64,000 nt of DNA, taken from contig DAHUYV010000012.1 of the NCBI GenBank assembly GCA_027306885.1, forward strand, positions 10,565 to 74,564, given 5' to 3'. Of the stretch, positions 54,801 to 63,857 are shown one piece after another (the first letter of the stretch is position 1; each line of letters begins with the position of its first letter). This DNA comes from Candidatus Dormiibacterota bacterium. Lineage in GTDB: Bacteria; Chloroflexota; Dormibacteria; Aeolococcales; Bog-877. The notes beneath the pieces were generated by a model that was not told where the DNA came from, did no database searches, and saw only the letters and a program-made list of their open reading frames with translations. A program made the translations under genes and the position numbers.

Positions 54801-55742
54801 ATGGCTTTTGCAGACGAGGTCCAGGCGGCGGCCGAGCTGGCGGCTCGAGAGGTGGCGCCGGCGGTGGTGGGGATCGGGACCCGTGGGCCCCTCGGCAGCG
54901 GGGTGGTGTTCGCCGATGGCCTGGTGCTGACCTGCGCCCACAACGTGCGCTTCCCCGGACGGTCCCTGCACTTCGCCGACGGGCGCGGCGCCAAGGCCGA
55001 GGAGGTGCACTTCGACCCCGCGCTTGACCTGGCCCTGGTGGCGACCGACACCGCGGGCCTTCGCGCCCCCCGGTGGGCCGCCCTCCCTGCGGGGCTCGGG
55101 ACCCCGGTCCTGGCCGTGGTCAACCCCGGAGGCGATGGTGTCCGGATCACCCTCGGCACCCTTGCCACGCCGGCCGGGGCCCTGGATGGTGGAGATGGGC
55201 TCCCGGGGACCACGGGGTTCGAGCACTCGGCCCCCTGCCCGCCCGGATCCTCGGGGGCGCCTCTGGTCACCCTGCAGGGCCAGGTGGTCGGCTTCAACGT
55301 CCGGCGCCAGGGCGCCCTGTACTGGGCGCTGGCTGCGACCGTCGACCTTCGGGGCCGACTGGAAGCGCTGGGGCGCGGCGAGGAGCTCGCCGGGCGAGGG
55401 TGGCTGGGACTGGTCCTGTACCCCGCCCCGATGGCGAGGCGGCTGCGTCAGGCGGTGGGACTGGAGGAGGCGCCGGGAGCGTTGGTGCGGGACGTGCTGG
55501 AGGACGGGCCGGCGGCCCGGGCCGGGGTGCGCCGCGGCGACCTGCTGGTGGCCGCCGCCGGCCAGGAGGTGTCCAGCCCCGCTGAGCTGCACCAGATCCT
55601 GGTGCAGACCCCTCCCGGCACCGCGGTCCAACTCCGGGTCAACCGGGCGGACGGCCAGGTGGAACTCACCGCCACCGTGGAGCAGCGGCCCTCCCCCACC
55701 GCCTTCGGCCACCACTTCCGGCGCGGGCGCCGCCGTGGCTGA
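54801..55742 (+). CDS. Trypsin-like serine protease with C-terminal PDZ domain (HtrA/S1C-like)
   Basis: Catalytic triad context (LTCAHNV, DLALV, GSSGAPLV) and a PDZ region; GGAGGTG SD. Confidence 0.8.
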   Translation: MAFADEVQAAAELAAREVAPAVVGIGTRGPLGSGVVFADGLVLTCAHNVRFPGRSLHFADGRGAKAEEVHFDPALDLALVATDTAGLRAPRWAALPAGLGTPVLAVVNPGGDGVRITLGTLATPAGALDGGDGLPGTTGFEHSAPCPPGSSGAPLVTLQGQVVGFNVRRQGALYWALAATVDLRGRLEALGRGEELAGRGWLGLVLYPAPMARRLRQAVGLEEAPGALVRDVLEDGPAARAGVRRGDLLVAAAGQEVSSPAELHQILVQTPPGTAVQLRVNRADGQVELTATVEQRPSPTAFGHHFRRGRRRG

Positions 55743-56589: not shown

Positions 56590-57503
56590 TCCGAGGGCCG
56601 CTCCCACTCCTCCTGGGCCAGCTCAAAGGCGCCGAGGAGCCCGGCGTCGCCGCGCAGCTCGGCGGGGGCCAGGAGGGCGTGACGCCGCGGGCCCGGAAAG
56701 CTCCCCTCCGCCACCGCCTCGACCATCGACTCCCAGAAGCGCGGGCCGGCGTTGAACACCCCACCCCCGAGGGCCACGGCGTCCAGGTTGAGCAGGTTCA
56801 GGAGGCCACCTATGGCCCGCCCCAGGTGACCGGCGGCGCGGTCCAGGACCGCCTGCGCCTCGGGGTCCCCGGCCGCCGCCGCCGCCGAGACCTCCGCCCC
56901 GCTTGACCGGCCCGCCATCTCGGCGATCGCGGTGCCGGAGGCGACCGCCTCGAGGCATCCCCGGTTGCCACAGCGGCAGCGGGGTCCGTCGGGCTCGACC
57001 ACCATGTGTCCAAACTCCCCGGCGGTGCCCTGGGAGCCCCGGTAGAGCCGCCGGTCGAGGATCAGCCCGGCCCCGATCCCGGTGCTGACCGTGACGTAGG
57101 CGAAGTTGGTCGACCCCCGCCCCGCCCCGCGCCGGTGCTCGCCGAGGGCAGCCAGCCCCGCGTCGTGCTCCACCCGGCACTCCCATCCCAGCCTCCGCTC
57201 GATCAGCTGGCGCAGCGGAACCTCCCGCCAGCCGGGGAGGTTGGGCGCCCCGTGGACGACCCCCTGATGGGGGTCGACCGGGCCCGGCACTCCGATCACC
57301 AACCGGGGCCGCGCCCCGCCGGCCGCCTGCCGGGCCAGCTCGCAGACCGCGTCGACGACCGCCTCCGGGCCGGCGGCCGACGGGGTCGGCACCCGAAGCG
57401 GTTGCCCCATCTGCCCATCGGCGGAGAAGGCGGCGACCCGCAGCCAGGTCCCGCCGAGGTCGACGCCCAGCACCGAGGCCACCGTGGCCCCCCCCGGGCT
57501 CAC
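56586..57503 (-). CDS. ROK family sugar kinase/regulator-like protein (glucokinase-like)
   Basis: GVDLGGTWLRVA N-terminal ATPase motif, ROK zinc motif (CRCGNRGCLE); start set at the GTG at 57503, overlapping the nfo stop (GTGA). Confidence 0.75.
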   Translation of the reverse strand: MSPGGATVASVLGVDLGGTWLRVAAFSADGQMGQPLRVPTPSAAGPEAVVDAVCELARQAAGGARPRLVIGVPGPVDPHQGVVHGAPNLPGWREVPLRQLIERRLGWECRVEHDAGLAALGEHRRGAGRGSTNFAYVTVSTGIGAGLILDRRLYRGSQGTAGEFGHMVVEPDGPRCRCGNRGCLEAVASGTAIAEMAGRSSGAEVSAAAAAGDPEAQAVLDRAAGHLGRAIGGLLNLLNLDAVALGGGVFNAGPRFWESMVEAVAEGSFPGPRRHALLAPAELRGDAGLLGAFELAQEEWERPSD

Positions 57504-58360
57504 GGCGGCCCCAGCGCCGGCAGCCCGCCGAGCTGGCGCAGCCGCTCGACGTTGGCGCGGTCCGGTCCCTGCCTCGCCTCCCCCGGCACCTCCAGGATCC
57601 AGGGTGCCCGCCGCAGCTGTGGATGGGCCAGCATGCGCCGGAAGGCCTCGGATCCGATCTCTCCCTCCCCGATGTTCTCGTGGCGGTCCCGGTTGGAGCC
57701 GAAGGCGGCCTTGGAGTCGTTGGCGTGGACCGCCCACAGCCGGTCCCAGCCGATCTCCGACTCCAGCTCGGCGAGGGCGGCGGAGAGGCCCTCCTCGGTG
57801 GTCAGCTGCCATCCCGAGGTGAAGGCGTGAGCCGTGTCGAGGCAGAGCCCGACCCGGGGCGAGTCAACCGCCTCCATCATCCGGCGGATCTGGGGCAGAG
57901 TGCTGCCGATGTTGGCCCCCGCCCCGGCGCTGTTCTCGATCAGCAGAAGGCTCTCCCCGGGTGCGCCCTCCAGGGCGCGCCGAAGGGCCTGGCCGATCTG
58001 CCCGAGGACGGCGTCGAACCCCTGCCCAAGGTGGGAGCCTGGGTGGAACACCACCCCGCGCACCCCGAGCTGGTTGGCCAGCTCCAGGTAGTGGCGCAGG
58101 GAGCCCTCGGAGTTGACCAGGAGCTCCGGACGGGGGGTCCCCAGGTTGATGAGGTACACGGCGTGGAAGAAGAAGGCGTTAAGCCCGGTGGCCGACATCC
58201 GCTCCCGGAACTGGATCACCAGCTCGGGCTCGAGATGCAGGTGGCGCCAGGTCTGGGGTGGGGTGGGGTTGACCTGGACCGCTTCGGCCCCCAGTTCCCG
58301 GGCCCGGTCGAAGGCGGTCAGGAGCCCACCCTTGACCGAGACATGGGCGCCGATCAGCAC
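57500..58360 (-). CDS. nfo: Deoxyribonuclease IV (endonuclease IV, AP endonuclease family 2)
   Basis: LIGAHVS...GG N-terminus and TIM-barrel metal-binding motifs (HANDSK). Confidence 0.85.
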   Translation of the reverse strand: MLIGAHVSVKGGLLTAFDRARELGAEAVQVNPTPPQTWRHLHLEPELVIQFRERMSATGLNAFFFHAVYLINLGTPRPELLVNSEGSLRHYLELANQLGVRGVVFHPGSHLGQGFDAVLGQIGQALRRALEGAPGESLLLIENSAGAGANIGSTLPQIRRMMEAVDSPRVGLCLDTAHAFTSGWQLTTEEGLSAALAELESEIGWDRLWAVHANDSKAAFGSNRDRHENIGEGEIGSEAFRRMLAHPQLRRAPWILEVPGEARQGPDRANVERLRQLGGLPALGPP

Positions 58361-58364
58361 CGGT

Positions 58365-59084
58365 TCACGCCCCCGGCGCCGGCGTGGGGGGCACGTACAC
58401 CTGACCCGAGGGGGGCGGGGCGACCGGCGCGACTCGATTGAAGTCGTTGTAGCGCAGCTGGATGCCGTCGGGGCCGGTGATCGTCAGCATCAGCAGCCGG
58501 TCGCTGCCCTGCTGCAGGTACAGGCTGAGAGACGGCCCCCGCCTGGGACGTTCCTCCAGCAACCACACCGGGGACCCGGAGAGGGTGGCGGCCCGCACCG
58601 TCGGCTGTCCCCGCAGGACCAGCTTCAGGGTGCCGGTGAGTCCCGCCCCGACGAAGGGGCTGACGCTCTGCCGGTACCGGCTGCCGTCGGTGCTGGGTTG
58701 GAGCACCCAGGTTGTGGCCGGGTTGAGGTTGCCGGGCAGCGAGGTGATCCCCAGCTGGGAGAGGGCGCCTGGCGCCAGCACGTACACCCGGTCGCCCACG
58801 GCCACCACCCGGGTGGAGAGAACCGGGGAGGGCGGGACGGCGAAGTCGACCTGCCCGGAGAAATCGCCGTTGGCCCGCTCCTGGACCGAGAAGCTGACCT
58901 TGGCGTCGCCCGCGCGGTCGCTTCCCTGCAGGTGGTAGGAGAGCGGCGCCATCGCACGCGCGGCCCCGGTCAGGAGCGAGCGCGCCGAGGGATCCGACGG
59001 TCCGCAGGAGCTGAGCAGGACGGCGCCGGCCACCGCCGCGGCCACACCCCACCCCAGGGCCAACCCGCGAGCCGCGAACACCAT
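58365..59084 (-). CDS. Hypothetical lipoprotein
   Basis: Signal peptide with lipobox LLSSCG; no recognisable catalytic motifs. Confidence 0.5.
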   Translation of the reverse strand: MVFAARGLALGWGVAAAVAGAVLLSSCGPSDPSARSLLTGAARAMAPLSYHLQGSDRAGDAKVSFSVQERANGDFSGQVDFAVPPSPVLSTRVVAVGDRVYVLAPGALSQLGITSLPGNLNPATTWVLQPSTDGSRYRQSVSPFVGAGLTGTLKLVLRGQPTVRAATLSGSPVWLLEERPRRGPSLSLYLQQGSDRLLMLTITGPDGIQLRYNDFNRVAPVAPPPSGQVYVPPTPAPGA

Positions 59085-59153
59085 GCAACCTCCGGGCCAG
59101 AACCACTGCCACCTCCTCCCCCCATTCTCCGCCAGAGGGACGACCGGAGTCTT

Positions 59154-60128
59154 TCAGGGGCGCCCGAGGATCACGGCAACCACGTATACGGCATACAGTC
59201 CCAGGCCCGCCGGGGCCAGGAGCACCGCACTCACGCCGCGCCGGGAGGTGGCCGCCAGCGCGATCAGGGCCCCGGTGACCGTGACCGCGGCGGCGAGGAA
59301 GCCCACTCCCTGGGGGTTCCAGGTGGTGAAGCAAAGCCCCACCACCGCCGGCACGGTGGCCTGGAAGACCATCGCCCCGGTGACGTTGCCGAGGGCCAGG
59401 GCATCCCGGCCCCGGCTCACCCAAAGGCCCCCCGCGGTCAGCTCCGGCAGCTCGGTGGCGATCGGGACCAGGAGCAGGGCCAGCACCATGGCGGAGACGT
59501 GGAGGGCCGGGGCGATCCCGCCCAAGCCGAGGACGAACAGCTCGCTGGCCACCGCCAGGCCCGCCACCCCGAGGATCGCCTGGCCCGCGCCGAGCACCGA
59601 GGCCCGGCCGCTCCAGGCTCTTGAGACAAGCAGGGCGGGAGCCGACTCTGCCGCCCCGGAGGAGCGGCGGACGCTGCGGTACACGTACGCCCCGTACAGC
59701 GCCACCAGGAGGAAGGCGTCCGCCACCCGGAGCGGCCGTGGGACGAAGGCGCCGACCATCAGCAGGGTGTAGCTGACAAGGAAGGCGTAGAGAGGAGCCC
59801 GCGCCTCCGCCGCGGGCACCGCCAGCCGCCGCCGGCGCGCCGCCAGGCAGAAGACGGAGGTGACGCCGAAGCCGAGGGTCGCCAGCATGAAGGGCGCCCC
59901 GAGGATCGCCCCGACAGCGGTCGAGGAGGCGGTCGGCCCGCCGTGCAGCAGCGCCACCACCGGGACAACGCTCTCCGGGAGCGCGGTGCCGATGGCGGAT
60001 AGGATCCCCCCGGTGGCGGCATGGCCCAGGCCCAGTCGGCTCCCCAGCCACTCCATGGAGTTGGTGAACAGGACCGCCGTCGCCAGCATGAGCACCAGTC
60101 CCAGGCCGAGCTCGGCCCAGTCGCCCAC
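59154..60128 (-). CDS. Ca2+/cation antiporter (CaCA family) membrane protein
   Basis: Two alpha-repeat signatures (GTALPE and ATELPE) in a ~10-TM protein. Confidence 0.7.
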   Translation of the reverse strand: MGDWAELGLGLVLMLATAVLFTNSMEWLGSRLGLGHAATGGILSAIGTALPESVVPVVALLHGGPTASSTAVGAILGAPFMLATLGFGVTSVFCLAARRRRLAVPAAEARAPLYAFLVSYTLLMVGAFVPRPLRVADAFLLVALYGAYVYRSVRRSSGAAESAPALLVSRAWSGRASVLGAGQAILGVAGLAVASELFVLGLGGIAPALHVSAMVLALLLVPIATELPELTAGGLWVSRGRDALALGNVTGAMVFQATVPAVVGLCFTTWNPQGVGFLAAAVTVTGALIALAATSRRGVSAVLLAPAGLGLYAVYVVAVILGRP

Positions 60129-60131
60129 CGC

Positions 60132-60620
60132 TCAGTCCCCGCCTCGGCCCCTGCCGGCCCGACCCAGCTCCCCGCCCAGCGCCAGCCCGTGGCGAGCCAC
60201 GTCGGCGAGGGTTACCTCCTGCCAGCGCTCCACCTCGGCTCCGGGGGAGGAGGCGAGAGCGTCGGCGATTCGCCGCCGGAACCAGGGGAAGGTGGCAGCC
60301 GGGAGACGGTCGGGCAACGCCCAGGCCACTCGAAGGGCCTCCCGGCTGCGCTTGAGCCGGCCCCCCACCGGGTGGGCGAGGAACACCGCGTCGGTGCCCA
60401 CCCGGATGCCCCGGAAGTGGTACAGGCCAACCCGGCGCACGATCTCCACCCTGACCCCGCACTCCTCCTCGGTCTCCCGCACCACGGTCTGTGCCGGGTC
60501 CTCCCCGGGAGCCACGTGGCCCCCCGGCGGCTCCCATCCCGGTGGCCAGCTGCGGAACTGGAGCAGCACCCGGCCCGAGGGATCGGCGATCACCGCCTGG
60601 GCACCCACGATCCGGCTCAT
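60132..60620 (-). CDS. NUDIX hydrolase
   Basis: Nudix box GGHVAPGEDPAQTVVRETEEECGV; ATG at 60620 overlaps the M50 protease stop (ATGA). Confidence 0.7.
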   Translation of the reverse strand: MSRIVGAQAVIADPSGRVLLQFRSWPPGWEPPGGHVAPGEDPAQTVVRETEEECGVRVEIVRRVGLYHFRGIRVGTDAVFLAHPVGGRLKRSREALRVAWALPDRLPAATFPWFRRRIADALASSPGAEVERWQEVTLADVARHGLALGGELGRAGRGRGGD

Positions 60621-61405
60621 CAGGTCACCAGGCAGGGGTGGAGAAGGTAGGTGGCCAGGCCCGAGCCTCCCTGCACGAACAGATAGGCCAGGTTGGGGAA
60701 GTAGATCGGCGGCGCGGCCCCGGTGGAGACGTGGGTCCAGATCCAGTTGAAGGCCAGCCCGGCGGGCACCGAGAGCGGGCTGAACCCACCCAGCAGTTGG
60801 GGCAGGACCAGCACCAAGAGGAGCAGGGCGACGTAGATGCCGGTCCGGTGCAGTTCGACCCACTGGAAGGGGAGCGGGTGGCGCCCGCGGAAGAGGCCCT
60901 CCGCCACCCCGAACCCATCGAGGGGAGGTATGGGGAGCAGGTTGAAGATGAAGAGCACCAGGTTGACGTACACCGCCTCCACCAGGAACCAGTAGATGAA
61001 CCCCATGAGGGGCAGGTCGAAGCTGGGATTGGAGCAGGTCTGGACCCAGGGGTTGGTGATGATCACCAACTTGGCAACGAACCCCAGGGCCGCCGCCAGG
61101 ACCAGGTTGCTGAGCGGCCCCGAGGCGGCCAGCCAGGCGCGCTGGCGACCGCGGCGGACGTAGATCGCGTTGTACATCACCGGGCGGGCGAACCCGAACC
61201 CGACGGTGATCAGGAGCAGCAGCCCGAAGGGATCGATCTGGGCGGCCGGGTTGAGCGACAGCCGCCCCTGCCGGCGCGGCAGCGGGTCCCCATAGCTCGT
61301 CGCCACCGCGGCGTGGCAGTACTCGTGGACGGTGAACCCCAGGGCGATCCCCGGGATGGCGAAGATGATGAGGACGAGGTAGAACTCGACCCCGCTCCCC
61401 AGCAC
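60620..61405 (-). CDS. Peptidase M50 (site-2 protease-like) integral membrane metalloprotease
   Basis: HEYCH zinc-binding HExxH in TM1, and a second conserved motif (NLLPIPPLDG). Confidence 0.7.
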   Translation of the reverse strand: MLGSGVEFYLVLIIFAIPGIALGFTVHEYCHAAVATSYGDPLPRRQGRLSLNPAAQIDPFGLLLLITVGFGFARPVMYNAIYVRRGRQRAWLAASGPLSNLVLAAALGFVAKLVIITNPWVQTCSNPSFDLPLMGFIYWFLVEAVYVNLVLFIFNLLPIPPLDGFGVAEGLFRGRHPLPFQWVELHRTGIYVALLLLVLVLPQLLGGFSPLSVPAGLAFNWIWTHVSTGAAPPIYFPNLAYLFVQGGSGLATYLLHPCLVT

Positions 61406-61411
61406 CGACCG

Positions 61412-61645
61412 TCAGTCCAGTGGGATCTTGTGGACCCTCGGGCCCCTCTTGGCGTGGCTCTGGGGCTGCTCCCGCTGCTCCAGGGTGGCGACCGCGGCGA
61501 GCAGCAGCTCCCGCTGCGCCCGGATCAGGTGCAGGCGGGCTTCGGCGGGGACCAGGGCCCCCAGCTGGCGACCGGCCAGCTGCGCCGCCCCCGCCAGTAG
61601 GTGTACGGCCAGCTCCCCCGCGTCCCGCAGCTCCGAGCGGGACAT
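61412..61645 (-). CDS. Small hypothetical helical protein (77 aa)
   Basis: ATGA overlap with the upstream ArsA-like gene; no motifs. Confidence 0.35.
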   Translation of the reverse strand: MSRSELRDAGELAVHLLAGAAQLAGRQLGALVPAEARLHLIRAQRELLLAAVATLEQREQPQSHAKRGPRVHKIPLD

Positions 61646-62814
61646 CAGCTCGCCTTCCCGAAGCGGATCGCCAGTTCGCCGCCCTCCAGACGGGCGGACC
61701 GGGTGACCTTGCCCCTCAGCACCCGTGGCAATGCGATCTCACGCTTGTATGGTCCGACGCTCACGTACAGCTCCTCCTGGTTCTGGGCCAGCTCGACCTG
61801 GTCCCGGCTCACGAAGGGCAGTTGCAGTGAGAGCACGTACTCGTCCCCCTCCTTGCGCAGGGACTGGGGCTTGGTGTGGTACATGATCGCCTCCGGCACC
61901 GCGTCCTGGTACAGGGAGCGGGCCAGCTCGGAGAGCTGGGCGACTCCCACGATCTCGTGATCGAAGAGGCGGGACTCCAGGATCGGCAGCGGGGAGAAGG
62001 TCTCCTGGACCTGGGCCCCATAGCGGACCTGGGCCTTGCGCCAGTCCGAGAAGTACTGGCCCCCGGCGTCGCCGGGGAGCACCCGGTTGACCAGCACCGC
62101 ATCCACCAGGTAGTCGTAGAGATTCAGGTAGGTGAAGGCCCGCTGCGCCTCCTTGATCACCATCTTCTCCAGGTTCAGGACGATCCGGACGGTGGTGGTC
62201 TTGGGGTCGGTGAGGATCTCCTTCATGGAGTCCAGATCGAGGAGCAGGCTGTGGATCGACCCGTAGATCTCATCCGCCGGCAGGGGGATGCCGATGAAGG
62301 GTTGGACCACCGGCCGGGTCATCTTCATCACCCTGCGCTGGATCGGGAAGATCCGGTTCAGGTACCACCGGGCCACGTCGGGGAAGGCCAGCAGCTGGAG
62401 GGTCTCGCCGGTGGGCGCGCAGTCGACGATCAAGACGTCGAAGCTCTTGGCGGCGACGTGTCGTCGGATCCACATGAGGCTGGCCACCTCCTCCATGCCC
62501 GGAGGCGTCGCCAGCTCCTCGGCGATGATGTCGTTAACCCCCTGGGAGTTGAAAAGGGCGGCCAGGTACTGGTGGATCCGCTCCCAATTGCCCTCCATCT
62601 CGTGCAGGGCGTTGATCTCCTGGGCGAATAGGTTCTCCTCCACCTGAACCGGCTCGGGTCCGAGCTCGCGGTCCAGGGAGTCGCCCAGACTGTGGGCGGC
62701 GTCGGTGGACATGACCAGGGTCCGTAGACCTCGCTCGGCGCAGAGCACGGCGGTGGCCGCCGCGATCGTGGTCTTGCCCACGCCGCCCTTGCCGGTGTAG
62801 AGGATCACCCGCAT
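61645..62814 (-). CDS. ArsA/GET3-family P-loop ATPase (single ATPase domain)
   Basis: Deviant Walker A YTGKGGVGKTT, and the Switch/A-loop context of ArsA/Get3/TRC40. Confidence 0.8.
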   Translation of the reverse strand: MRVILYTGKGGVGKTTIAAATAVLCAERGLRTLVMSTDAAHSLGDSLDRELGPEPVQVEENLFAQEINALHEMEGNWERIHQYLAALFNSQGVNDIIAEELATPPGMEEVASLMWIRRHVAAKSFDVLIVDCAPTGETLQLLAFPDVARWYLNRIFPIQRRVMKMTRPVVQPFIGIPLPADEIYGSIHSLLLDLDSMKEILTDPKTTTVRIVLNLEKMVIKEAQRAFTYLNLYDYLVDAVLVNRVLPGDAGGQYFSDWRKAQVRYGAQVQETFSPLPILESRLFDHEIVGVAQLSELARSLYQDAVPEAIMYHTKPQSLRKEGDEYVLSLQLPFVSRDQVELAQNQEELYVSVGPYKREIALPRVLRGKVTRSARLEGGELAIRFGKAS

Positions 62815-62848
62815 GTCGCGAGTATACGGGCGGGCCTTGGAGCACCCC

Positions 62849-63349
62849 TCAGTGCAGGAAGACCCACCCGAAGATCACCAGCACCAGAAGGAACGCCGAA
62901 ACCAGGACCACTCGCCTCAGGTCCAGGAGCAGGTAGGGCGTGCGGTCGATGGGCACCGCGGGGCTCTCGTCCATCGGTTCCAGGGCGGCCTCCTGCTGGC
63001 GCCGACGCTCAGCCCGGCCCGCCACCCGGTTGCGCCGGGGAAGCAGCGTCCCAGCGGCGGCCCCGCCACCGACCGGCGCCTCTTCGGCCCGGGGCTCAGC
63101 GGTGTCCGGGGCCTGACGTTGCGGGAGGAACGACCTGGAGCGGGCGGGAGGCGGGCTCTCCGGTGCCGCGGGAGGCGCCTCGTGGGCCTCGACCGTCGGG
63201 ATCTCCTCTCCGGGCAGCACCTCCGACACCTCTTCCGGAGGCGGGCTGGGCGGCGCCGGCGCCGGCGGCGTGCGTCGCTGAGTGGAGGCTGGGCCCCCCG
63301 AGGGCCTGCGGCCCGGGCCGGGGGCGCGGCGCTTGGTGCGTCTCGGCAA
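62849..63349 (-). CDS. Pro-rich, largely disordered protein with a single C-terminal TM helix (tail-anchored topology)
   Basis: TTG start with a GGAG SD; GC3 ~88%; the final 25 residues are VVLVSAFLLVLVIFGWVFLH; 34 nt upstream of the ArsA/GET3-like gene. Confidence 0.45.
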   Translation of the reverse strand: MPRRTKRRAPGPGRRPSGGPASTQRRTPPAPAPPSPPPEEVSEVLPGEEIPTVEAHEAPPAAPESPPPARSRSFLPQRQAPDTAEPRAEEAPVGGGAAAGTLLPRRNRVAGRAERRRQQEAALEPMDESPAVPIDRTPYLLLDLRRVVLVSAFLLVLVIFGWVFLH

Positions 63350-63525
63350 GGTTGGAGCTCCGATTGGTTGGTGCCGCCGGGGCTGGTTGGGGCGGCGCCA
63401 GTTTAACCAAAGGAGCGTACCGGGACCGGTGGTGCAGGCAGCGAGCGCCGGCTGGAGGGGGTCAGTTTGGCGAAGGAGGGGAACGAAGCGGTGCCAGCGC
63501 CCACTGCCTGCGTGGGCGATGCGTG

Positions 63526-63857
63526 TGGGGCCACATCTTGTGCCCGTCGCAGATTAAACCACACCATCTTGTGGAATGCAAGGGGGGTCCGGGCAGCCGG
63601 GTCCGACCCTCTCACGAAGGTCGCTCAAAGCGCCGCAGGGCCCATCGGGGGAAGAGCGGGATCGAGCCGAAACTGAGATGAACTGGCCCACCACCCGCAG
63701 ACGATGTCTCTCGGTGGCTCTGGGCTGGCACCGGCGGGGGCGCACCCGTCGTGGATCGCCCGGGCCTCCAGGTCCGGACCGTTGAGTGGGCTGACCCGGC
63801 AGCCCGAAGAATAGGTGCGGTGGCGCCCTCGACCCGCGCCATCAGCGCGTGGTCCCA
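63526..63857 (+). ncRNA. Structured ncRNA candidate with an RNase P RNA-like P4 pseudoknot signature (possible rnpB)
   Basis: GGGGGGUCCGGGCAGCC near the 5' end and CUGACCCGGCAGCC near the 3' end can form G(U)CCGGG:CCCGGC with a bulged U (P4-like); GGGGCCAC (63527-63534) pairs with GUGGUCCC (63849-63856) as a P1-like closing stem; no coding-like frame on either strand; the conserved ACAGAA and GGUAAG motifs are poorly matched. Confidence 0.3.

Follow-up and report, generated by a model that had tools for sequence, protein, structure and literature searches.

Within the 64,000-nt window analysed here (the whole stretch taken from contig DAHUYV010000012.1 of the Candidatus Dormiibacterota assembly GCA_027306885.1, from a soil bacterium), consecutive minus-strand genes encode a tail-anchored (TA) protein, a Get3/TRC40-type ATPase ending in an alpha-crystallin (HSP20-like) domain, a protein of 77 amino acids (aa) and a minimal M50 metalloprotease of the site-2-protease type (Table 1). 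We propose, with a probability of roughly 45%, that this Dormibacterota operon is an ATP-driven chaperone module for transmembrane (TM) segments, built from a two-protein core that recurs across phyla (the ATPase and the 77-aa protein) together with a recruited TA protein and site-2 protease. The best-supported novelties are the cross-phylum small partner, its C-terminal tail resembling those that small heat-shock proteins (sHSPs) carry, the recruitment of the TA protein and site-2 protease in Dormibacterota, and a conserved leader RNA. The nearest relatives of the window, whose G+C content is ~72%, were Candidatus Dormibacterota metagenome-assembled genomes (MAGs), with ATPase identities of 90% or less.

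A Get3/TRC40-type ATPase with an alpha-crystallin domain

The ATPase matched Pfam ArsA_ATPase (PF02374) over aa 1–302 (E = 8.8e-91; 304.7 bits against a cutoff of 24.3) and ArsA_HSP20 (PF17886) over aa 323–385 (E = 2.3e-20), and scored 267.6 bits against the NCBIfam GET3/ArsA/TRC40 model TIGR00345 (cutoff 135). A sequence search of the PDB placed archaeal Get3/TRC40 first (Methanothermobacter thermautotrophicus [Mth] 3zq6, E = 4.7e-53; M. jannaschii 3ug6, E = 1.2e-43), in an alignment that ran nearly without gaps through aa 5–308, helical client-binding region included; the near-gapless match to Mth TRC40 through aa 135–205 identified the TRC40-insert subdomain. NosGet3d (E = 3.6e-25) and E. 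coli ArsA (E = 1.2e-24) were also recovered, the top-scoring stretch of the latter being limited to the N-terminal ~150 residues of the query. An AlphaFold2 (AF2) model (pLDDT 75, pTM 0.76) showed a Rossmann core, long helices at aa 77–122, 135–170 and 181–201, and a C-terminal seven-stranded sandwich at aa 317–386. When this model was searched with Foldseek, 3zq6 again ranked first, and ~395 columns, alpha-crystallin domain included, were aligned to NosGet3d (8egk) and AtGet3d (8elf). These matches identify the protein as a Get3/TRC40-type ATPase that ends in an alpha-crystallin domain.

The P-loop, switch I (STDAAHS; pattern STD.AH) and switch II were kept in 77 homologues from several phyla, and six Met residues fell within aa 70–205. 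Both the Cys and the Glu of switch II (DCAPTGET) were present in all 77 aligned homologues; in ArsA/Get3 the motif is DTAPTGHT, and the form seen here may be a subfamily signature. Archaeal Get3/TRC40, although it provides the closest solved sequences and the best fold matches, has no alpha-crystallin domain, and the Mth CEFC motif aligns with GQYF in the window ATPase, whose sequence contains no CxxC. To our knowledge, no small-partner gene accompanies the archaeal proteins. Pfam and NCBIfam searches revealed no Get1, Get2 or Get4 homologue among the proteins of the locus.

Source databases name such proteins 'arsenite-transporting ATPase' or 'ArsA family ATPase', which, like the ArsA_ATPase match, would fit a genuine ArsA energising arsenite or antimonite efflux. 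This we consider extremely improbable. The window protein has one ATPase domain in 389 aa, whereas ArsA is a tandem A1–A2 protein of ~580 aa; the metalloid-binding Cys triad is absent, since C25 and C132 are its only cysteines; the ArsA equivalog TIGR04291 was matched with 83.6 bits against a cutoff of 650; and E. coli ArsA was missing from the top 50 Foldseek matches. No arsB, ACR3, arsC, arsR or arsD was found in the 17 kb of the window downstream of the cluster, and the open reading frames (ORFs) scanned with Pfam upstream of the orthologous clusters L001 and L017 included no arsenic-resistance gene, although two of these ORFs matched no Pfam family. Scores were also far under the MinD/ParA equivalog cutoffs of NCBIfam, and reached just 47.7 and 48 bits for BagA and BagB (cutoffs 400 and 521). 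E. coli ArsA and M. tuberculosis BagA/BagB share with the window ATPase the P-loop superfamily, the deviant Walker A and a DxAPTGxT switch II, but the tandem domains, Cys triad and ars operon of E. coli ArsA have no counterpart here. The arsenite-pump and ParA/MinD readings were both rejected, given how the protein is built, its scores relative to the cutoffs, its cysteines, its gene context and its fold. An earlier note on this DNA, made from the sequence alone, had described an ArsA/GET3-like ATPase not adjacent to arsenic genes and had named a grouping with arsenite-pump ArsA or with ParA/MinD as one that would undo its proposal; the Pfam, NCBIfam, PDB and Foldseek results point to neither grouping.

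Two other parts of that note need amendment: the ATPase is not 'single-domain', as the ArsA_HSP20 domain follows its one ATPase domain, and it is not itself undescribed, because its class is known as 'Group 6' (PMC6593721) and as the Get3d architecture (PMC10248533). Farkas et al. (2019) characterised Group 6 by the TRC40 insert, an alpha-crystallin domain, the lack of CxxC, occurrence in non-photosynthetic phyla and an unclear function (PMC6593721). Barlow et al. solved Get3d and described its partners as unknown, with new ones being needed; in vitro capture of a TA protein was shown for both NosGet3d and AtGet3d (PMC10248533). With Get3d (AtGet3d 8elf; Nostoc NosGet3d/All4481, 8egk/3igf) and Group 6, the window protein shares a single Get3-type ATPase domain with a C-terminal seven-stranded alpha-crystallin domain, the lack of CxxC, a helical region of the TRC40-insert type and the full-length fold match. 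It is, however, just 18–23% identical to the solved Get3d proteins, and has a complete P-loop and switch I Asp where the Get3d active site is described as incomplete. Its host belongs to a non-photosynthetic phylum, which does not follow the link to photosynthetic lineages put forward in PMC10248533 and agrees with PMC6593721. Neither paper describes gene partners, whereas those identified here comprise a conserved small protein, a TA protein and a protease. With 148.5 bits against a cutoff of 325 for the NosAFP/Get3d equivalog NF050088, the ATPase falls in a subfamily of the Get3d architecture other than NosAFP. Clostridia, Methylomirabilota, Spirochaetales and Chitinispirillaceae also contain relatives, at ~50% identity.

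A small partner with a conserved C-terminal tail

In 69 of 80 loci the ATPase stop codon is abutted or overlapped by an ORF on the same strand whose product ends in [IV]x[IVL][DEQS], against a background of 0.8% of all ORF ends; five of the remaining 11 loci have too little flank. The loci with this ORF span at least five phyla (Dormibacterota, Bacillota, Methylomirabilota, Chloroflexota and Chitinispirillaceae), and those outside Dormibacterota have ATPase identities of ~50%. By this pattern the 77-aa protein, treated as a flanking one in the earlier note, is the invariant cross-phylum partner of the ATPase, and it is quite likely that the two proteins are physical partners.

Searching 1.8 billion representative proteins with a profile yielded 58 members of the family. 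In the family alignment P33, H39, A43 and E46 were invariant within the motif VP.EA..HL..AQRELLLA, followed by a basic linker of variable length and then by the C-terminal motif: 56 of 65 members end in [IV]x[IVL][DE], 53 of these with a basic residue before it, and 64 of 65 end in hydrophobic-x-hydrophobic-x. The AF2 model comprised helices at aa 3–29 and 34–59 and an unstructured tail. Three of four independent look-ups showed the small gene overlapping an upstream ArsA_ATPase + ArsA_HSP20 gene by 4 nt and carrying a precomputed PF27253 ('AF_1253') match; in the fourth, the upstream gene, also overlapping by 4 nt, was cut off at the contig end and had no annotation. The window protein had no Pfam match in a set from which the PF27253 model was missing, and its homologues (48–55% identity), as well as more distant profile matches of the family, carry PF27253. 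No NCBIfam match was obtained for the protein and no match in a PDB profile search for the family, while a literature search on AF_1253, ArsA_HSP20 and bacterial Get3 neighbourhoods returned nothing relevant beyond PMC6593721 and PMC10248533.

The window protein ends in KIPLD, an IxI/V-type tail in an extension left unstructured by the AF2 model. In sHSPs, IxI/V tails bind the beta4/beta8 groove of alpha-crystallin domains; the tail of IbpA is IEI, and the motif of MjHSP16.5 lies within its last five residues (PMC10474464, PMC3638399). Like the tails of IbpA, MjHSP16.5 and wheat HSP16.9, those described here combine a basic residue with I/V-x-I/V at the end of a disordered extension, and an alpha-crystallin domain is encoded by the neighbouring gene. 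The difference from sHSPs is that tail and domain reside on separate proteins (putative docking in trans) and that the domain is fused to an ATPase and lacks the beta6 loop. In every locus examined, within a sample made up of ATPases with that domain, the tailed proteins adjoin the ATPase. Docking in trans is proposed because, in these loci, the tailed proteins lie beside an ATPase with an otherwise orphan alpha-crystallin domain; by analogy with sHSPs, we put the chance that the small-protein tail docks into that domain a little short of even.

Upstream of the ATPase, 12 non-Dormibacterota loci encode a regulator assigned by Pfam to the MarR family (E = 4e-11 to 4e-14), its gene ending 49–164 nt before that of the ATPase (L054, L058–L061, L067, L070, L071, L074, L076, L079 and L080); these loci belong to Bacillota, Chitinispirillaceae and one Spirochaetales MAG. 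All 12 regulators end in ...K[IV]x[IV][EQ]. A scan of the non-Dormibacterota loci for conserved third components detected only MarR beyond the ATPase and the small gene. Given the shared tail, MarR is probably titrated at the ATPase site that would receive the small protein, and the motif suggests a common binding site for the two.

The shared [IV]x[IVL][DE] tail could instead be a degradation tag or another signal, read by a C-terminal-processing or AAA+ protease, with the small protein contacting the ATPase through its helical hairpin only. Degrons often sit at the extreme C-terminus, which is where this motif lies; conservation in the small protein is highest in the helix motif and not in the tail; and in Get3d the alpha-crystallin domain packs onto the dimer of the ATPase. 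Nevertheless, the tailed proteins lie beside an alpha-crystallin-domain ATPase in all examined loci, and the tail is common to two unrelated families that flank the ATPase on either side. We judge the signal explanation distinctly unlikely.

A conserved tail-anchored protein upstream of the ATPase

The topology of the TA protein was judged from hydropathy. Its one hydrophobic segment (aa 147–165 of 166; Kyte-Doolittle mean 2.99) falls inside the C-terminal ~30 residues, and neither a signal at the N-terminus nor a second TM segment is present. The first 140 residues include 30 Pro, 21 Ala and 20 Arg. The N-terminus is basic (MPRRTKRR; M[AT][KR]R.K[KR]R in orthologues), and the disordered Pro/Ala/Arg-rich region contains S[FL]LP[RK]R motifs, which occur once or twice in orthologues, as well as a helix of basic character, RVAGRAERRRQQEA, that orthologues share. 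Conservation is strong in the juxtamembrane motif of the orthologues (LEP.D..P[AG][IV]P.DR[TV]PY...DLRRV), while a Ser and a Gly are invariant in the TM segment, which is followed by one to six residues. Over the last 66 codons, comparison with ten orthologues gave ratios of non-synonymous to synonymous substitution (dN/dS) of 0.2–0.57, mostly 0.2–0.4, and the G+C content at third codon positions (GC3) of 0.86 matched that of the neighbouring genes (0.86–0.94 across the run). The TA ORF is a real gene under purifying selection. The earlier note had named an unconserved, non-coding low-complexity sequence as a possibility that would undo its proposal; dN/dS, GC3 and the motifs kept in orthologues led to its rejection, and the tail-anchored layout that the note had read from the ORF holds. 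Neither Pfam nor NCBIfam contained a matching family. An IxI-like V-P-I-D within the protein (PAVPIDR) was considered and discarded, as its third position varies freely in orthologues (L, F, T, A, S, E).

TA and M50 counts were obtained with a looser TA pattern and with tblastn for M50, which catch divergent members. The loose motif search located TA orthologues in 45 Dormibacterota-type loci, always upstream of the ATPase and on the same strand, at a distance of usually 8–141 nt and of 0.5–1.9 kb in five deep lineages. The gene is kept in deep lineages (ATPase identity 52–57%) where NUDIX, CaCA and Nfo no longer adjoin. Searching from the TA side, the ATPase was directly downstream in five of five confirmed metagenome loci, a small reciprocal test because the metagenome scan gave only those five. 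A two-TM membrane protein of the DUF1003 family (Pfam E = 2.4e-25) occupies the place of the TA protein in L045–L049, L051 and L055, which form one Dormibacterota clade, and a partial copy is present in L044. A functional link between the TA protein and the ATPase seems slightly more probable than its absence, while the narrower proposition that the TA protein is the client of the ATPase is possible but somewhat unlikely.

A different role would be that of a membrane tether or receptor, comparable to the long flexible N-terminal arm of Get2/CAML, which brings to the membrane either the small protein or the ATPase with other clients bound, and is itself regulated by the M50 protease. The long disordered basic cytoplasmic arm bears short motifs (M[AT][KR]R.K[KR]R, S[FL]LP[RK]R and GRAERRRQQEA), the last of which presumably resembles the RERR Get3-binding motif of Get2, and the conserved juxtamembrane motif and invariant TM Ser/Gly suggest specific contacts over a generic anchor. 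Yet the TA protein has no detectable homology to Get1, Get2, WRB or CAML, and the ATPases of other phyla work with no such protein encoded nearby. The residues that bind Get1, Get2 and Get4 are, moreover, listed as absent from this ATPase group (Farkas et al., PMC6593721). We regard a tether as very unlikely.

A minimal site-2 protease downstream of the core

The M50 protein matched Pfam PF02163 (Peptidase_M50) with 43.6 bits (cutoff 27.2). Five to six TM segments are present, PDZ and CBS domains are absent, and its catalytic motifs, HExxH and NxxPxxxLDG, are intact, as in a site-2 protease. An M50 gene follows the ATPase–small gene pair in 49 of 53 Dormibacterota-type loci (25/25, 7/9 and 17/19 by identity bin).

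Site-2 proteases require as substrate an N-in/C-out anchor whose ectodomain is very short, and for this reason the TA protein may suit such an enzyme with no prior site-1 cleavage. The comparison with known site-2 systems (RseP–RseA, RasP–RsiW/FtsL, Rip1/anti-sigma) extends from HExxH and NxxPxxxLDG to the candidate substrate, which is single-pass, N-in/C-out, has a near-zero ectodomain and carries helix-destabilising Ser and Gly in its TM segment. It differs from them in that the M50 protein lacks PDZ and CBS domains, that no sigma or anti-sigma domain is involved, that no site-1 cleavage would be needed and that the substrate is a putative one. Action of the M50 protease on the TA protein, as this analogy would have it, we regard as unlikely.

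Other proteases were observed in the vicinity of the core in individual loci: an M48 HtpX-like protease in L089 (1902–2783) and an HtrA/PDZ-like protease in L088 (2–571). These neighbours suggest a link to membrane protein quality control, but each is a single case. In the window, a Trypsin_2 + PDZ HtrA-like protease is encoded at 54801–55742 on the plus strand, 5 kb from the cluster.

Recruited components or inherited gene order

Several observations weigh against the proposed module. The linkage of the TA protein and M50 is confined to one phylum, where block synteny is inherited and NUDIX and CaCA travel along in shallower clades; the M50 gene follows the ATPase–small pair in none of 19 loci from other phyla. 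M50 is also missing from L028, L033, L036 and L043, the TA protein still being present in L028 and L043, and in L086 the TA protein is present while NUDIX comes straight after the small gene. About 14 Dormibacterota-type loci have no TA gene within 6 kb upstream (available flank) and keep M50. Because each can be absent where the other stays, the TA protein and M50 are not mutually obligatory. In the AF2 model of the ATPase, the helical subdomain was modelled with moderate confidence (pLDDT 47–68 over aa 71–110 and 131–190). In Get3d, the alpha-crystallin domain packs on the Get3 dimer at the Get4 site and is dispensable for TA capture (PMC10248533), and the beta4/beta8 edge may therefore not be free. 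Farkas et al. further reported that the number of TA proteins is uncorrelated with the presence of these ATPases, and that TA insertion in E. coli uses the signal recognition particle (SRP), DnaK and YidC (PMC6593721).

These data can also be read as a core that serves as a stress holdase of general scope, taking up proteins that are hydrophobic or unfolded; the TA protein and M50 would then be Dormibacterota passengers carried by inherited gene order. TA and M50 genes are not beside the ATPase in any of the 19–21 other-phylum loci; they are lost independently of each other; NUDIX, CaCA and Nfo, with no obvious functional link, are equally syntenic in shallower clades; and in Bacillota the unit is a self-contained MarR–ATPase–small gene cassette in variable surroundings. 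A general chaperone role is favoured for this ATPase group by Farkas et al. (PMC6593721). However, in deep lineages (52–58% identity) the TA and M50 genes remain near the ATPase after NUDIX, CaCA and Nfo have dispersed. NUDIX synteny illustrates this, being seen in 28 of 28 shallower Dormibacteria loci and in one of 18 deep-branching loci; since NUDIX adjacency falls so low there, M50 and TA outlast the obvious passengers. The TA gene persists despite one or two genes inserted before the ATPase, a conserved promoter and leader are common to the TA gene and the operon, and the M48 (L089) and HtrA-like (L088) neighbours hint at a recurring link to membrane protein turnover. We see the holdase-with-passengers explanation as conceivable, yet somewhat improbable. 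The neighbourhood of TA protein, ATPase, small ORF and M50 that the earlier note had put forward is thus conserved in Dormibacterota, and does not extend to other phyla as far as the TA protein and M50 are concerned.

Under the proposed TM-segment chaperone module, a dimer of the ATPase would shield very hydrophobic TM segments in the cytoplasm through its helical subdomain, in an ATP-dependent cycle like that of Get3/Get3d. The small protein (~75–100 aa, translationally coupled, with a hairpin, a disordered basic linker and a [KR][IV]x[IVL][DE]-COOH end) would dock its IxI-type tail in the beta4/beta8 groove and, once docked, regulate or localise the ATPase; in Bacillota the upstream-encoded MarR with the same tail would be titrated at the same site. 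In Dormibacterota the core would have recruited a dedicated TA protein, most likely as a client, co-produced from the same leader and promoter and having an exceptionally hydrophobic anchor with only one to six residues beyond the membrane. The recruited minimal site-2 protease could then cut this N-in/C-out anchor, which lacks an ectodomain, and so free or clear the basic cytoplasmic domain of the TA protein. The eukaryotic GET/TRC pathway (Get3, Get1/2 or WRB/CAML, Get4/5) offers parallels in the logic of shielding a C-terminal TM segment, in small partners that are helical or have basic arms, and in the position of the Get3d alpha-crystallin domain at the Get4 site. It differs in that no Get1, Get2, Get4, Get5 or Sgt2 homologues and no CxxC are present here, and the partners are unrelated. 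The fully specified version, a hitherto unrecognised bacterial GET-like system with an alpha-crystallin socket for a universal IxI-tailed AF_1253 adaptor and, in some phyla, for the MarR repressor of the operon itself, so that chaperone titration would control it, a TA client processed in Dormibacterota by a site-2 protease, and control through a C-rich leader, is in our estimation unlikely to hold in every part.

A conserved structured RNA and promoter-like element

Upstream of the TA gene, a non-coding element of ~170 nt (63413–63585, minus strand) showed 80–95% nucleotide identity in 19 loci in which the ATPase is 73–90% identical at the amino acid level. Its promoter-like part was kept as CTTGC[GA]-17 nt-T[TCG][TCG]AAT in 19–25 orthologous loci, and the spacer holds the inverted repeat CCACA-N6-TGTGG. 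A scan with sigma-70 and terminator consensus sequences returned nothing above chance; the simple sigma-70 scan missed this element because its -10 hexamer has T at position 2, and it was recognised through conservation. It is a putative promoter. L001 and L017 have different genes upstream of it in their order, which makes this the probable start of the operon.

The remainder of the element contains a structured RNA whose 19-bp stem closes a 40-nt C/U-rich loop with the anti-Shine-Dalgarno-like sequence CGUUCCCCUCCUUCG (the loop is also written as containing CCCCUCCUUC). A covariance model (R1) detected the RNA in 25 loci, divergent ones included, always upstream of the TA gene; loci with the element at the same position are L001–L024, L031, L062, L081 and L084. 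In the RNA alignment 99.1% of cells were paired, compared with 28–50% in slid controls, compensatory changes occurred at two pairs, and the single-sequence fold had z = -4.15. Rfam searches at gathering and permissive thresholds gave no credible family. The RNA could be a 5' leader, a riboswitch or a 6C/RsaE-like small RNA.

Layout of the locus and neighbouring genes

Eight co-directional minus-strand genes form an uninterrupted run at 57500–63349, with intergenic gaps of 34, 6, 3, 69 and 4 nt. All six genes named in the earlier note were found, the CaCA gene lying just beyond the interval given for them, and the gaps among the named genes (34, 6 and 3 nt) are within the 34 nt it had indicated. 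The positions of the stop/start overlaps, 61645 and 60620, were also correct, but each overlap is a 1-nt TGATG rather than an ATGA; as the M50 stop/NUDIX start overlap is of this type and not a 4-nt ATGA, the NUDIX start is 60620.

Table 1 Positions of genes, protein motifs and upstream elements in the window
Feature	Position	Strand	Details
Promoter-like element	63553–63581	-	TTGCAT (63581–63576), 17-nt spacer, TG(n), TTTAAT (63558–63553)
Structured RNA	63432–63545	-	~114 nt; hairpin 63545–63514; 19-bp stem 63511–63493/63452–63434
TA protein	62849–63349	-	166 aa; TTG start
TA juxtamembrane motif	62912–62983	-	LEP.D..PA[IV]P.DR[TV]PY...DLRRV
TA TM helix	62855–62911	-	aa 147–165; one residue after it
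Get3/TRC40-type ATPase with alpha-crystallin domain	61645–62814	-	389 aa
ATPase P-loop (deviant Walker A)	62770–62793	-	GKGGVGKT, aa 8–15
ATPase switch II	62398–62421	-	DCAPTGET, aa 131–138
ATPase alpha-crystallin domain	61657–61866	-	aa ~317–386
77-aa protein	61412–61645	-	Probable AF_1253/PF27253 family (from homologues); 1-nt overlap with ATPase stop codon
77-aa protein C-terminal tail	61415–61429	-	KIPLD
M50 metalloprotease, minimal site-2-protease type	60620–61405	-	261 aa; Pfam Peptidase_M50
M50 HExxH motif	61313–61327	-	HEYCH, aa 27–31
M50 NxxPxxxLDG motif	60914–60943	-	NLLPIPPLDG, aa 155–164
NUDIX hydrolase	60132–60620	-	162 aa; Nudix box GHVAPGEDPAQTVVRETEEECG; start overlaps M50 stop by 1 nt
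CaCA-family cation/Ca2+ antiporter	59154–60128	-	324 aa; two Na_Ca_ex repeats; ~9 TM segments
Lipoprotein-like ORF	58365–59084	-	239 aa; N-terminus …AVLLSSCGPSD; no Pfam family
AP_endonuc_2 gene	57500–58360	-	Co-directional; end of run

The NUDIX gene is probably an operon passenger and not part of the mechanism. Synteny of CaCA with the cluster is gone in deep lineages, and this gene is context rather than core. The lipoprotein-like ORF was syntenic with the cluster in shallower Dormibacteria loci. Several SMAG_U* MAG contigs (L017, L021, L024, L037, L041, L046, L049 and L078) hold a Dormibacterota-type or Methylomirabilota-type locus, although the records are labelled Micrarchaeia, Verrucomicrobiia, Nitrosotalea, Solibacter, Eisenbacteria or Patescibacteria; mistakes made in binning or labelling the source records are the probable cause.

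Significance

Bacteria and chloroplasts widely possess ATPases of the Get3 type that bear an alpha-crystallin domain, yet PMC6593721 and PMC10248533 name no partner, client or physiological role for them. The locus described here supplies testable candidates for the missing bacterial Get3 partners, namely a small protein, a TA client or tether and an intramembrane protease, and adds a very highly conserved structured RNA, for which Rfam has no family, from a poorly studied uncultured phylum. Some of the relatives belong to Clostridia available in culture, among them Anaerobacterium chartisolvens DSM 27016 (L070), so genetics and biochemistry are feasible. A rule of IxI-type C-terminal tails could explain the purpose of the enigmatic alpha-crystallin domain in this family.

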